Source: Nanobdellota archaeon
GTDB lineage: Archaea > Nanobdellota > Nanobdellia > Pacearchaeales > GW2011-AR1
Direction: 5' to 3'
Assembly: GCA_022563455.1 (NCBI GenBank)
Contig: JADFNI010000001.1
Span: forward strand, 1 to 63,005
DNA: 63,005 bases
Shown: one piece after another, positions 2,956-22,211 of the stretch
How positions within the stretch are numbered: position 1 is the stretch's first letter
How the letters are laid out: every line of letters begins with the position of its first letter
Program-made: the position numbers and the translations under genes
The notes under the pieces: model-generated
The model's input: the letters and a program-made list of their open reading frames with translations, nothing else
The model's database searches: none
Told to the model about the DNA's origin: nothing

Positions 2956-3588
2956 ATGGAAACAAAAGTTGCACTTGCAGAACTTAGAAAAGAAAAGAAA
3001 AGAAAGTTTGTACAAACCGTAGACTTAATTGTAAATTTAAAGAATTTTGATGTTCGAAAAGAGGCTCTTAATACTTTTATTGATATTCCTCATCCTACGA
3101 ATAAAAAAGTTGGAGCTTTCTTGACCAAGAGATCTAAACTTATTGAATCGATTACTGAAGAAGATTTTGTGAAGTACAAAGATATTAAGGACATAAAGAA
3201 GCTTGCTAAGTCTTATGATTCGTTTATTGCTGCGGCTCCAATGATGGGAAAGATAGCTACTAAATTTGGACGAGTTTTTGGTCCTATGAATAAAATGCCT
3301 AGTCCTCAGGCTGGGATTATTGCTAAAGAAGACGATGCTACAATTTCTGCCATGATTGAAAAGATGAAGCATGTTGCTAGGATTAAAAATAAAGAGGCTT
3401 CGATTAAGCTCGTCTGTGGAAAAGAAGATATGTCAGACGAAGATATTACTGAAAATATTGTTTCAATGCTTAAAAGTTTGGAAGGAAAACTTCCTAGGGG
3501 AAGAGATAACATTAGAGAGGTTTTGATTAAATTTACTATGACTAAATCTCTAAAGATAATGGAGGACATGTATGGAAGCAAAAATTAA
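2956..3588 (+). CDS. rpl1: 50S ribosomal protein L1
   Basis: METKVALAELRKEKKRKFVQTVDLIVNLKNFD... is a typical L1 N-terminus. The gene sits first in the L1-P0-P1 order. Confidence 0.92.
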   Translation: METKVALAELRKEKKRKFVQTVDLIVNLKNFDVRKEALNTFIDIPHPTNKKVGAFLTKRSKLIESITEEDFVKYKDIKDIKKLAKSYDSFIAAAPMMGKIATKFGRVFGPMNKMPSPQAGIIAKEDDATISAMIEKMKHVARIKNKEASIKLVCGKEDMSDEDITENIVSMLKSLEGKLPRGRDNIREVLIKFTMTKSLKIMEDMYGSKN

Positions 3589-4459
3589 GACTCATGTGTC
3601 GGAAGCTAAGAAAGCAAAAGTTAAAGATCTTGCTGAAAAGATGAAGAAGAAAACTGTTATGGTTATTTCTATTAAAGGACTTCCTTCGGCGCAGTTTCAA
3701 GACATAAAGAAAAAGCTTAGAAATAAGGCGGACGTTATGGTTGTTAAGAAAAGCTTAGTTAATTTTGCGTTGGACCACTCTGGAATAAAAGAGTTGCAGG
3801 AGCTTGTTCCATTTATTAATGATTCAACTGCTGTGTTATTTAGCGACTCTGACGCGTTTGAGCTCTCAAGTATTTTATCTAAAGAGACTAGTCCTGCTAA
3901 AGCTAAAGCTGGGCAAATTGCACCAATGGATATTGAAGTGAAAGCTGGGCCAACGGAGCTTCTTCCAGGACCTGATATTTCTGCGCTCTCTTCTGTTGGG
4001 CTTGCTCCGAAAGTTGAGAATGGAAAAATTGCAATTATACAGGATAAGATTATTGTTAAAAAAGGAGATGTCATTAGTGAAGCACATGCAGCTGTTATGG
4101 CGAAGCTTGATATTATTCCCTTTGAAGTAGGGGTGGAGCCTGTCGCTGCTTATATGGATGGAATTGTATACAAGGATATAAAGATTGATAGCGAAGCTAC
4201 AATTGCAGAGCTTGAATCTGCATATGGATCTGCCTTATCATTTGCTGTTGAGATTGTTTATGTTAATTCTCTGACATTGGATTATATTTTGTCAAAGGCT
4301 GGGGCATTTGAAAATGTTATAACAAGGATTGTTACGGGGGAGCCTGAACCTGTGGCTGTAAAGGCGATAGAAGAGACAAAGACTGAAGCTAAAGAGGAAA
4401 CTAAAGCGGAGGAGCCAAAGGCTGAGGCAGCTGAGGGTTTGGCTTCATTATTTGGATAA
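3572..4459 (+). CDS. rplP0: 50S ribosomal stalk protein P0 (L10)
   Basis: Position after L1, with an acidic/Ala-rich C-terminus ending EEPKAEAAEGLASLFG shared with P1. Confidence 0.92.
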   Translation: MEAKIKTHVSEAKKAKVKDLAEKMKKKTVMVISIKGLPSAQFQDIKKKLRNKADVMVVKKSLVNFALDHSGIKELQELVPFINDSTAVLFSDSDAFELSSILSKETSPAKAKAGQIAPMDIEVKAGPTELLPGPDISALSSVGLAPKVENGKIAIIQDKIIVKKGDVISEAHAAVMAKLDIIPFEVGVEPVAAYMDGIVYKDIKIDSEATIAELESAYGSALSFAVEIVYVNSLTLDYILSKAGAFENVITRIVTGEPEPVAVKAIEETKTEAKEETKAEEPKAEAAEGLASLFG

Positions 4460-4515: not shown

Positions 4516-4812
4516 ATGGAATATGTATATGCTGCACTTTTGTTGCACAAGACTGGACAGGAAGTAAGTGAAGAGAACTTGAAAAAAGTTATCGCTGCTA
4601 CCGGGGCTAGTGTTGATGAATCAAAAGTGAAGGTGCTTGTCGCGTCTCTTAAGGGAGTCGATATAGATGAAAAGCTTGCAAATGCATCTCTTGCTGCGGC
4701 ACCTGCTGCTAGCGAAAAGGATGATGCAAGACCCGAGTCTGCACCTGAAGAAAAGAAGAAAGAAGAACCAAAGGCTGAAGCAGCTGAGGGTTTGGCTTCA
4801 TTATTTGGATAA
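4516..4812 (+). CDS. rpl12: 50S ribosomal stalk protein P1 (L12)
   Basis: MEYVYAALLLHKTGQEVSEENLKKVI... has the conserved stalk tail EEPKAEAAEGLASLFG. Confidence 0.92.
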   Translation: MEYVYAALLLHKTGQEVSEENLKKVIAATGASVDESKVKVLVASLKGVDIDEKLANASLAAAPAASEKDDARPESAPEEKKKEEPKAEAAEGLASLFG

Positions 4813-4970
4813 TTGCTTAATTGTGATTTTTGGGTTTTAAAGTTGAACTTAAGTCTTGCTTTAAAACTTCGAAGATGGAGCCTCTTTAGAGGATTCTGTT
4901 TTTAAATAGGAGGTTTTTTTAGATCGGACTTTTTAAAAAGTAATTTAAATGTGAATTGATATTAAATATA

Positions 4971-9607: not shown

Positions 9608-10570
9608 ATGACAGACGAGAATGGAAGTAGATCAGGAAGTTTGCAATTTTACCCAAGGGTAAGAGCAAAGAAAGTTATTCCTAGTGTAAACTGGAGACCT
9701 GTTAAAAAAACGAGTGTTGGACTTTTAGGATTTGTGGGCTATAAGGTTGGAATGATTTCCGTTTTTGTTAAGGATGATACTGAGGCGAGTCTTACTAAAG
9801 GGAAAAGAATAACAGTACCTGCTACGATCGTTGAATGTCCTTCAATGAAAATTTATTCTGTTAGGTTTTACAAAGGGAGTAAGGTTCTAAAAGATGTTGT
9901 TGTAACTAAGGATAAAGATTTGAAGAAAAAAATTAAGCTTTCTTCTGAAATTAAAAATTTTGAAGAGGCTATTAAAGATTTGAAGGATTTGAATTTTGAG
10001 GATGTTCGAGTTTTACTTTATACAAATGTTAAGATAACTACAGTGGGCAAAAAGAAACCTGATATGATTGAGGTTGGGCTTAGCGGGTCTAATGAGGAGA
10101 AATTGATATTTATTAAAGAAAGAATTGGAAAGGATATTTTGGTTAGTGAAGTTTTTAGTGATGGATTAATTGATGTTCGTGGAGTTACTAAAGGATTTGG
10201 CACTCAAGGACCTGTTAAAAGATTTGGAATTTCGTTGAAATCTCATAAATCTGAAAAGGGGAGACGAAGACCTGGATCTCTTGCCCCTTGGCATCCTGCA
10301 AGGGTTACATTTAGAGCTCCTCAGGCAGGACAAACAGGATATCATAATAGAATTACTTACAATAATGTTATTTTAAAAATTGGAAACATTAATGAGAATG
10401 ATATTAATAAGAAAGGTGGATTTGAACACTATGGGGTTATCAGGGGAGAGTATATTGTTCTTAGGGGTTCAATTCCTGGTCCTTCGAAAAGGGGAATTGT
10501 TATGACTTTGGCAATACGTCCAAGTAAATATTTAGCAAAGAAAAAGTTGGAGGTTCTTGAGATACGATGA
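9608..10570 (+). CDS. rpl3: 50S ribosomal protein L3
   Basis: SRSGSLQFYPRVRAKK matches the archaeal L3 N-terminus (..RRGSL.F.PRKRA). The track ORF 9557 was trimmed to ATG 9608. Confidence 0.92.
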   Translation: MTDENGSRSGSLQFYPRVRAKKVIPSVNWRPVKKTSVGLLGFVGYKVGMISVFVKDDTEASLTKGKRITVPATIVECPSMKIYSVRFYKGSKVLKDVVVTKDKDLKKKIKLSSEIKNFEEAIKDLKDLNFEDVRVLLYTNVKITTVGKKKPDMIEVGLSGSNEEKLIFIKERIGKDILVSEVFSDGLIDVRGVTKGFGTQGPVKRFGISLKSHKSEKGRRRPGSLAPWHPARVTFRAPQAGQTGYHNRITYNNVILKIGNINENDINKKGGFEHYGVIRGEYIVLRGSIPGPSKRGIVMTLAIRPSKYLAKKKLEVLEIR

Positions 10571-10851
10571 ATGACGAAATAGAAAGTTGTGGAAATCAAG
10601 CGTCTTGTGAATATGCGTTTGGCTATCCTCGTCTGTACACTAAACTAGGTCCTGAAGATGCGTTATGCCTCGGGAAGTTAAGTTATGATACTAGAGAGGG
10701 AAGTTATCATGCAACCCTAACACCTATGCCAGGATTTAAGAGTTTCGAGAGGCGAATTCAGTGCGCTCCTGCAGTAATGCTTACATCTCAAAGAAAGGTT
10801 GAAGGGATGCTTGGAAAATTACTTGAAGCAATGGAGGCAACTGGAAAATGA
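10567..10851 (+). CDS. Orphan 94-aa protein inserted between L3 and L4
   Basis: An open frame of 285 nt in an AT-rich genome. There are ATGA overlaps at both ends (L3 stop/ORF start at 10567-10570, ORF stop/L4 start at 10848-10851). It is Lys-poor and has 5 Cys, unlike the neighbouring r-proteins. Confidence 0.55.
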   Translation: MNDEIESCGNQASCEYAFGYPRLYTKLGPEDALCLGKLSYDTREGSYHATLTPMPGFKSFERRIQCAPAVMLTSQRKVEGMLGKLLEAMEATGK

Positions 10852-20990: not shown

Positions 20991-21338
20991 ATGGAAAAAA
21001 TATTAGTTATAAGAATTGCTGGGAGAGTTAAGAATAAGATTAAAGATAACGAAACTCTTAGTCGGTTGAAACTTAGAAGGAAATTTACTTCAATCATAGT
21101 GAACAGTGACGACAAGATTAGAATGGGAATGGTTAATGCTGTCTCTTATATGGTTGCTTATGGAGTTGTAGATGATAAGTTTGTTAAGGAGCTTAATAGT
21201 AAGAGACCTGCAAAGGAAGGTGTTTATTTCTTACATCCACCTGTTGGAGGTTTTAAGAAGAGCTCTAAGGTTGCAGCACCGAAGGGAATCTTGGGGAAAA
21301 ATGAAGATATTACTAAACTTGCAGGGAGGATGTTGTAG
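20991..21338 (+). CDS. rpl30: 50S ribosomal protein L30
   Basis: MEKILVIRIAGRVKNKIKDNETLSRLKLRRKF, with operon position after S5. Confidence 0.88.
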   Translation: MEKILVIRIAGRVKNKIKDNETLSRLKLRRKFTSIIVNSDDKIRMGMVNAVSYMVAYGVVDDKFVKELNSKRPAKEGVYFLHPPVGGFKKSSKVAAPKGILGKNEDITKLAGRML

Positions 21339-21339
21339 G

Positions 21340-21666
21340 ATGGGAATTAGTGAGAGAAATATGGTTGCGTGTGAAGTTTATGATTTGGCAAATAGTCCTG
21401 ATTTGAGACTTGCTAGGCATGGAGATTTTATTAAATATGGAAAATGTAGAGCATTTGTATTAGGATCAAATCCTGAAGAAGGCGGCCTTGGTGAATTAGT
21501 TGTTATTAAAAGAGGCAATCATAGGAATTTTATAGGGAATTCTTTATATTTTAATCAAAACTCTGGAATGGTTGTTAGATCTGACGAAATAATGGAGTTT
21601 CATCATTTTAGTGATCCAGATTTATATAGGGAATGTGACTTAATGTTTCAAGAGGTAGATCGATAA
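21340..21666 (+). CDS. Orphan 108-aa protein inserted between L30 and L15
   Basis: ATG 21340 lies 1 nt after the L30 TAG and is preceded by a GGGAGGA SD. Its TAA overlaps the L15 ATG (TAATG at 21664-21668). It has only 3 Lys in 108 aa, so it is not r-protein-like. It corresponds to the 3' two-thirds of track ORF 21172..21666. Confidence 0.5.
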   Translation: MGISERNMVACEVYDLANSPDLRLARHGDFIKYGKCRAFVLGSNPEEGGLGELVVIKRGNHRNFIGNSLYFNQNSGMVVRSDEIMEFHHFSDPDLYRECDLMFQEVDR

Positions 21667-22211
21667 TGGTAAAAGTACATAAGAGAACAAAGAATTCTAG
21701 ACTTCGAGGGTCTAGAACTGCTGGATGGGGATTTAGGCAGTCACATAAGGGACATGGAAGTAGAGGGGGATTTGGTATGGCTGGAACTGGAAAACGTGCA
21801 GACCATAAAAAGCAGAAGGCGTTAATGTCAGATAAGAAGAAAAAATATTTTGGTAAACAGGGAGCAACTTCTAGAGGGACTGCTCGCAAAAAAAATGTTA
21901 GTATTAATTTATATGATATTAAGGATAATATTTTTAAAAAGGAAGGGACAACGCTCAGTGTACCCTCTGAAAGAATGAATAAGGGGGCAAAGATTAATCT
22001 TTCTAAATATAAGATTTTGGGGAGTGGGGAGGGATTTAAGGCAGAGATTACTGCTAGAGCTGCGACTGCACTTGCTATTGAAAAGATGACTAAGGCTGGA
22101 GGATCAATTATCATTGTTGGAGCTGGAAAAAAAGATGTTAAGCAGTATGTTAAAGCGGAAAAAGAAGGGAATGATGAAGAATCAAGTGCAAGTGAAGAAG
22201 CAAATAATTAA
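21666..22211 (+). CDS. rpl15: 50S ribosomal protein L15
   Basis: RLRGSRTAGWGFRQSHKGHGSRGGFGMAGTGKR is the L15 signature. Confidence 0.92.
   Translation: MVKVHKRTKNSRLRGSRTAGWGFRQSHKGHGSRGGFGMAGTGKRADHKKQKALMSDKKKKYFGKQGATSRGTARKKNVSINLYDIKDNIFKKEGTTLSVPSERMNKGAKINLSKYKILGSGEGFKAEITARAATALAIEKMTKAGGSIIIVGAGKKDVKQYVKAEKEGNDEESSASEEANN

Follow-up and report, generated by a model that had tools for sequence, protein, structure and literature searches.

Few gene orders in biology are as fixed as that of the array from L3 to L15, which is used routinely as a phylogenetic and binning marker and is assumed to hold housekeeping genes only. The window analysed here, a stretch of 63,005 nucleotides (positions 1 to 63,005, forward strand, of contig JADFNI010000001.1, assembly GCA_022563455.1) from a DPANN archaeon of the Nanobdellota with an AT-rich genome (33% GC; assembly ~0.97 Mb), carries the full archaeal ribosomal protein (r-protein) cluster from L3 to L15, followed by SecY, and within it an open reading frame (ORF) of 108 aa lies between the genes for uL30 and uL15. 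What kind of gene is this ORF, where does it come from, and how does it persist inside such an array?

Anatomy of the uL30/uL15 junction

The uL30 gene (20991..21338, + strand; 115 aa; Pfam PF00327) ends with TAG at 21336-21338, its product ends with ...GRML as in 48 congeners, and a single base (G 21339) separates this stop from the ATG at 21340 of the inserted ORF, named P0001 here (21340..21666, + strand; 108 aa). The TAA of P0001 (21664-21666) overlaps the ATG (21666-21668) of the intact uL15 gene (21666..22211, + strand; 181 aa; Pfam PF00828), forming a TAATG at 21664..21668 (+ strand). A Shine-Dalgarno (SD)-like GGGAGGA, as read from the sequence (21324..21330, + strand), precedes the P0001 ATG by 9 nt, which places the ribosome binding site (RBS) used by P0001 within the last codons of uL30, and an SD-like GAGGT in the 3′ end of P0001 (21652..21656, + strand), a putative relay RBS, precedes the L15 ATG by the same 9 nt. 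A sequence-only reading of this DNA had given the coordinates of P0001, the 1-nt gap after the L30 stop, the GGGAGGA motif and the TAATG overlap, and had described the product as acidic and with only 3 Lys; all of these were reproduced, including an identical 108-aa translation with a pI of 5.27.

In most congeners, the L30 and L15 genes overlap or are at most 4 nt apart, with the junction reading ...GRML-stop/ATG-(V/K)K(V/T)HKR, and at these insert-free junctions the same L30-internal motif region precedes the L15 start. P0001 begins where L15 begins in genomes without the insert. The N-terminus of uL15 in the window, compared with that of the congeners, is the usual M-(V/K)-K-V-H-K-R. Therefore, as the termini of both L30 and L15 match those of insert-free relatives, both genes are complete and P0001 is a clean insert. 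A frameshifted L30 tail and an N-terminal extension of L15 were both rejected as origins of the ORF on the same grounds, namely that the two genes end and begin exactly as they do where no insert is present.

By its sequence properties, the stretch at 21340-21666 looks like a genuine protein-coding sequence. When the ORF body was subjected to 200,000 mononucleotide shuffles, only 3 stayed open in frame, which puts its chance openness at ~1.5e-5, and the other five frames contain 6-20 stops. The codon-position GC1/2/3 of 0.47/0.33/0.19 follows the gradient of real genes here, and the overall GC of 0.33 and the codon-position profile are identical to those of the host. The encoded protein contains 3 Lys, 12 K+R and 17 D+E, and its pI of 5.27 compares with a median of 10.2 for the r-proteins of the window; no transmembrane or hydrophobic segment was found in it. 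Because the identical protein occurs on three contigs in public assemblies, the longest of 272,662 bases, an assembly artefact is unlikely.

Orphan status and the protein family at the same junction

Searches of Pfam, NCBIfam, PHROGs and PADLOC gave no family for P0001 at E<=1, and comparison with PDB sequences gave one match at E 0.38 and nothing below that value. A word-index search of 5.8 billion proteins and an exhaustive phmmer search of 1.84 billion representative proteins both returned only P0001 itself, tblastn against 60 relatives gave one chance-level match only (E 0.0095), and tblastn against its own genome found only the query, that is, neither a paralogue nor a second copy. Among metagenome and genome contigs, no relative closer than ~80% identity in the flanking r-proteins was found, and Rfam gave no structured-RNA match at P0001. 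The view that the ORF is an orphan of no recognised family was thus borne out by the curated-family, word-index and phmmer searches, and a known family unrelated to translation, which the sequence-only reading had named as the alternative, was not identified by homology searches. Orphan status stands as far as curated families go, but is softened by a weak and non-random similarity to a family of ORFs at the same L30/L15 junction, described below.

Two identities were tested against these data and found unsupported. An r-protein is contradicted by the lack of any curated r-protein match, by the pI of 5.27 and by the emptiness of the junction in most of the 49 congeners, and the earlier description of the product as non-ribosomal accordingly holds, the junction being empty in, for instance, G062, G021 and G071. 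A mobile, phage or defence gene is likewise disfavoured, with 0 families from PHROGs and PADLOC, no boundary duplication around such inserts as a class and no second copy in the genome.

The AlphaFold2 (AF2) single-sequence model of P0001 is compact (pLDDT 67, pTM 0.58), with N-terminal helices, a 5-6-stranded sheet and a C-terminal helix predicted in this order (strands E30-33, E36-44, E50-58, E63-72, E77-79 and E87-89; helix H93-107). Fold searches gave no match at E <= 0.001 for P0001 or the family model against the PDB, nor for the family model against viral structures, the best E-values being 0.4 and 0.18 for the PDB and 0.037 for the viral structures; weak matches to PUR-alpha/PC4-like folds, with a TM of ~0.35 at most, were set aside.

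The junction is empty in the nearest representative-genome relatives in which it could be read (G062, G021 and G071 on a concatenated r-protein tree). P0001 is thus missing from its nearest representative relatives, and is therefore dispensable. An ORF is found repeatedly at L30/L15, in deep branches of the genus as well as in G048, a member of another family of the order, and the junction has at least four or five sequence-distinct occupants. The ORFs of G024, G014, G032 and G061 (98-103 aa) form one clear family, those of G011 and G068 (96 and 103 aa) are mutually related (E 2e-4), the metagenome contigs L125, L129 and L130 carry ORFs of 108-128 aa, and that of G048 is ~105 aa long. The sister of the window on a three-gene tree is contig L129, and its 128-aa same-junction ORF has no measurable similarity to P0001 (z = -1.0). 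In G010, the ORF is ~200 aa long and metallo-beta-lactamase (MBL)-like, with an HxHxDH motif; read as THGHVDH, this motif makes the product look like a metallo-beta-lactamase-fold hydrolase, and the gene is coupled to both L30 and L15.

The measurable L30/L15 family comprises seven database members (P0002-P0008) together with the ORFs of G024, G014, G032, G061 and L130, and every member whose locus was read sits at L30/L15. Its AF2 model, built from a 7-sequence alignment (pLDDT 86, pTM 0.75), shows successive strands and then a C-terminal helix (E29-32, E35-42, E45-51, E57-63, E78-82 and H89-99). In these predictions, strands and C-terminal helix come in the same order in P0001 and in the family, a likeness that is tentative given the pLDDT of 67 of the P0001 model. 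In close family pairs, the dN/dS of the ORF is 0.20-0.27, compared with 0.03-0.09 for the flanking L30 and L15, and in the other pairs it is 0.47-0.69, compared with 0.02-0.11; the closest pair shows significant purifying selection (p = 2.8e-5). Therefore, the pLDDT 86 model and a dN/dS below 1 together indicate that at least the L30/L15 family encodes a folded protein under relaxed constraint. The weak constraint, with dN/dS of up to 0.7, could also reflect only the cost of a harmful abundant peptide and not a function. One pair of ORFs is 73% identical where its L30 and L15 are 98-99% identical, and from such comparisons the family proteins are estimated to change 10-40 times faster than their ribosomal neighbours, a rate at which a family copy would become unrecognisable in species whose r-proteins are 70-80% identical.

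P0001 shares the placement of this family, lying between uL30 and uL15, at ~100 aa and coupled at both ends, and its sequence was compared with the family in several ways. Against the full-family profile, it ranks 77 of 2,076 genome ORFs (empirical p 0.033), and hhalign gives a probability of 0.4%. Smith-Waterman alignment with the G032-type members is collinear (P0001 residues 4-89 with residues 2-88), and 6-9 of 5,000 shuffles reach its score (p ~0.001-0.002). With a G032-type sub-profile, picked after the best pairwise score had already been seen, P0001 comes first of the 2,076 genome ORFs (8.7 bits vs 7.2 for the next best; residues 8-68; per-target E 1e-4), and it also comes first of 58 against the ORFs of other junctions; the two other family sub-profiles gave no signal for it. 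Against the family profile, six L30/L15 ORFs that seem unrelated jointly outscore the genome background (Fisher p = 0.0017 and 0.0009) and the ORFs of other junctions (Mann-Whitney p = 0.017), and the ORF between L3 and L4, used as a negative control, gave p 0.5-0.7 against the same profile.

The N-terminal MCxxxGC motif is absent from P0001. In P0002-P0008, residues 1-7 hold an invariant MC-x(2-3)-GC, for which disorder is predicted (pLDDT below 50), and no other Cys or His is invariant. The motif is not strictly family-defining, since L130, a clear member (profile E 2.9e-8), also lacks it. On these sequence comparisons, P0001 is probably a remote homologue of the L30/L15 family, a judgement kept only somewhat above even because the sub-profile was selected with the best pairwise score already in view.

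Inserts at other junctions in the window and the genus

P0001 is not the only insert in its cluster. The L3/L4 junction of the window holds a 94-aa ORF (10567..10851, + strand) of the same architecture, which is also a singleton among 5.8 billion proteins and, as had been noted from the sequence, bears no likeness to P0001 (Smith-Waterman z = -0.1). Six congeners have ORFs of 66-102 aa at L3/L4, four of them Cys-rich like that of the window, with only weak pairwise similarity (e.g. z = 3.6 for L095 vs L106). Several junctions hold short inserts of 91-97 nt, namely L23/L2 (11896-11985) and L19e/L18 (19504-19595) of the window, and S5/L30 (L088, L092, L104 and L107) and L30/L15 (L104 and L102) of congeners; the insert of G022 carries the tandem repeat GGTCGCTTCGCTTGTGGG. 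These 91-97-nt inserts fit a mini-cistron relay element. Alignment revealed no relationship between the 3′ end of P0001 and the L2, L5 and L18 leader copies of a 66-93-nt mini-cistron element.

To place P0001 in its genus, the L3-to-SecY clusters of all 49 genus genomes were compared, with inserts defined as 150-600 nt at internal junctions. There are 66 such inserts in 21 of the 49 genomes, up to 10 per cluster, and a same-strand open frame spans at least 90% of the gap in 54 of the 66, compared with 4 for the reverse strand. Therefore, the earlier remark that small non-ribosomal genes within an r-protein cluster are unusual is true of archaea at large, with this lineage as an exception. In other genera of the order, junction ORFs are rarer. 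The junction ORFs have a GC1/2/3 of 0.457/0.361/0.261, compared with 0.442/0.350/0.256 for r-protein genes, a median pI of 5.9, and a possible transmembrane segment in 1 of 64. Stop/start geometry of the coupling type was found in 54 of 63 (ATGA in 32, TAATG-type in 10 and stop+1 nt in 12), and an SD-like motif occurs in the 3′ end of 39 of the 63 (62%, vs a background of 19%).

The comparison also bears on how such ORFs arise and whether they move. Around the junction inserts, real pairs of termini or target sites were no more alike than shuffled pairs, giving no sign of duplication, and the ATGG shared by the starts of P0001 and L15 is too short to count as one. After removal of clear homologues, ORFs of the same junction remained more alike than those of different junctions (p = 0.0014, all junctions), and the best cross-junction similarities (p ~3e-4 to 2e-3 among 1,880 pairs) were not significant after correction, giving no sign of movement between junctions. 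The other junctions carry unrelated ORFs and show no consistent pairing with a particular r-protein.

Several further observations concern neighbouring loci. Two heavily loaded genomes also have non-conserved ORFs (67-101 aa) wedged between the conserved genes of their second r-protein cluster, S13 to S9 (4734-4946 and 5332-5535 of L157 from G024; 3584-3889 and 5043-5285 of L160 from G026), indicating that junction ORFs are not confined to the L3-to-L15 cluster. In the genome of the window, a conserved ORF at 4226-4816 of L161 (G000 contig C21) is 196 aa long, compared with ~120 aa in four congeners, and may contain an N-terminal extension or a fused junction ORF. On L131 and L136, metagenome contigs that carry the L30/L15 family, genes of 79-97 aa without a Pfam match lie between L18/S5 and S5/L30 (754-993 and 1862-2155 of L131; 1069-1320 of L136). 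The L15/SecY gap of congeners is a hotspot for larger cargo (L076, L090, L094, L095, L108 and L111). Two genomes have homologous ORFs of 263 and 269 aa there (E 4e-58), and the other occupants include a DNA-methyltransferase-like ORF of 419 aa, an ORF of 159 aa that is deaminase-like and carries HAE...PCxxC, and an ORF of 468 aa.

Explanations for the junction gene and their meaning

Based on these findings, we propose that P0001 is a passenger gene in the uL30/uL15 junction which is translated by coupling, relays ribosomes to L15, descends from an old junction gene of the genus and has an accessory role; we hold this proposal as a whole to be probable, though with considerable room for doubt, and our best reading of the locus is of a passenger gene that is dispensable, evolves very fast and owes its expression to translational coupling. 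P0001 would have no promoter of its own, being transcribed with the operon, and would be translated by termination-reinitiation at about the r-protein level, its start taking over the RBS embedded in the end of L30. The GAGGT in its last codons would serve as a new RBS and its stop overlaps the restored L15 start, such that the 3′ end may relay ribosomes onward to L15. The frame and the 3′ relay signals would then be held by selection on L15 expression, because ribosomes would have to cross P0001 to reach L15. The product is predicted to be a soluble, acidic alpha/beta protein of 12 kDa that is probably not a component of the ribosome, and most likely derives, with extreme divergence, from an old junction gene of the genus. 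Its persistence could be explained by a mixture of cis constraint, L15 being dependent on the relay, and weak selection acting on the protein. As the family is fast-evolving under relaxed purifying selection, P0001 most likely has some accessory, lineage-specific role.

The same cis signals permit a starker interpretation, wherein P0001 is purely a relay spacer whose frame, 3′ SD and stop/start overlap are kept only for reinitiation on the essential L15, and the peptide is a tolerated by-product. The exact fit of the insert to the junction, the coupling geometry at both of its ends, the class-wide enrichment of 3′ SD-like motifs with coupling-type spacing in 54 of 63 ORFs, the extreme sequence turnover and patchy presence, and the mini-ORF inserts of ~90-100 nt in other junctions of the same cluster would all be expected of a spacer. 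However, the measurable L30/L15 family is under purifying selection (dN/dS 0.2-0.3 in close pairs, p = 2.8e-5) and is predicted to fold confidently (pLDDT 86), the GC1>GC2>GC3 gradient of P0001 is that of long-standing coding sequence, its single-sequence model is predicted to be compact (pTM 0.58), and ~100 codons are needless when relays of 27 codons exist in the same genome. We therefore consider a pure spacer unlikely, although worth keeping in view.

The opposite extreme would give the protein a dedicated role in translation. In its broad form, the junction genes would be old, vertically inherited, ribosome-stoichiometric and species-specific partners of the translation apparatus, with P0001 a local uL30/uL15-associated factor of a new hyper-variable class, which we regard as quite improbable. 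In a narrower form, P0001 would be a lineage-specific ribosome-associated protein, for example a dedicated chaperone or assembly factor that serves uL30 or uL15, both very basic, or a species-specific accessory subunit, whose synthesis would keep pace with that of ribosomes. A roughly ribosomal stoichiometry is implied by its position and coupling, its pI of 5.27 stands beside neighbours with a pI above 10, same-junction ORFs recur in deep branches of the genus and in G048, and eukaryotes possess acidic dedicated chaperones for single r-proteins. Nevertheless, the protein is absent from most congeners, the nearest representative relatives included, its kind outpaces, by a factor of 10-40, the evolution of the r-proteins that it would need to fit, it matches no r-protein or known assembly-factor family, and the unrelated ORFs at other junctions show no consistent r-protein pairing, which makes the narrower form very doubtful.

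Highly improbable, finally, is the recent capture of a foreign cassette, viral or from a mobile element, which would have reached the junction independently in the manner of phage morons or integron cassettes and be unrelated to the L30/L15 ORFs of other species: the four or five or more distinct occupants of L30/L15 (the ~200-aa MBL-like ORF of G010 among them), the larger and clearly foreign-type genes in the adjacent L15/SecY gap of congeners and the empty junction of the nearest representative-genome relatives would accord with it, but the GC of 0.33 and the codon-position profile are identical to those of the host, searches of PHROGs, PADLOC and viral folds gave nothing significant, no repeat, target duplication or paralog was found, ORFs of different junctions show no significant similarity to one another after multiple-test correction, and same-junction ORFs are more alike than different-junction ones, with the non-family L30/L15 ORFs jointly above background.

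The passenger gene proposed here resembles several known systems in part. The closest described kind is the insertion of ORFans into native operons, wherein ORFans are placed next to native genes and use the native promoter, are mostly functional and under purifying selection, and are much more rarely inserted inside pre-existing operons than added at their ends (Price, Arkin & Alm 2006, 'The life-cycle of operons', PMC1480536). The likeness lies in a taxonomically restricted gene beside native genes; however, unlike the typical ORFans of that study, P0001 is internal, sits in the most conserved operon known and is coupled at both ends, and this lineage holds up to 10 inserts per cluster. Non-ribosomal genes are present in archaeal S10-spc clusters as well, with SUI1/aIF1 and the RNase P protein Rpp29 within them and secY at the end, as in the cluster maps of a survey of archaeal r-protein clusters (PMC10833476). 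Like P0001, these are non-ribosomal and co-transcribed with r-proteins, but they are ancient, widely conserved and of known families, whereas P0001 belongs to one organism and no family. A keyword search of that survey gave no mention of junction inserts, and no description of this junction-ORF pattern was found in the literature searched.

A likeness to relay mini-cistrons and synthetic bicistronic designs is found in the stop that overlaps the next start, the SD in the last codons of the upstream frame and the reinitiation, although the mini-cistron elements are ~27-30 codons long, repeated and hairpin-bearing, and P0001 is 108 codons long and unique. Phage morons, additional genes of lambdoid phages that separate two genes lying side by side in related phages, typically bring their own promoter and terminator and a deviant composition. 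P0001 resembles them as a small extra gene in a seam of a co-directional array, present or absent among close relatives and dispensable to the array, but differs in lacking a promoter and terminator, in its host-like composition and in its dependence on translational coupling.

In conclusion, here and in 20 other species of the genus, the junctions of the r-protein array hold small, apparently translated genes. If the passenger reading is true, the next r-protein would be translatable only after the passenger has been read, and the array would provide a natural system in which to study how genes that are new or evolve fast come to be expressed and are then locked into position. It would also mean that orphan status can arise purely from evolutionary rate, with unrelated-looking ORFs at the same junction keeping a faint common signal, and that annotation pipelines leave these highly expressed proteins as unexplained hypotheticals.
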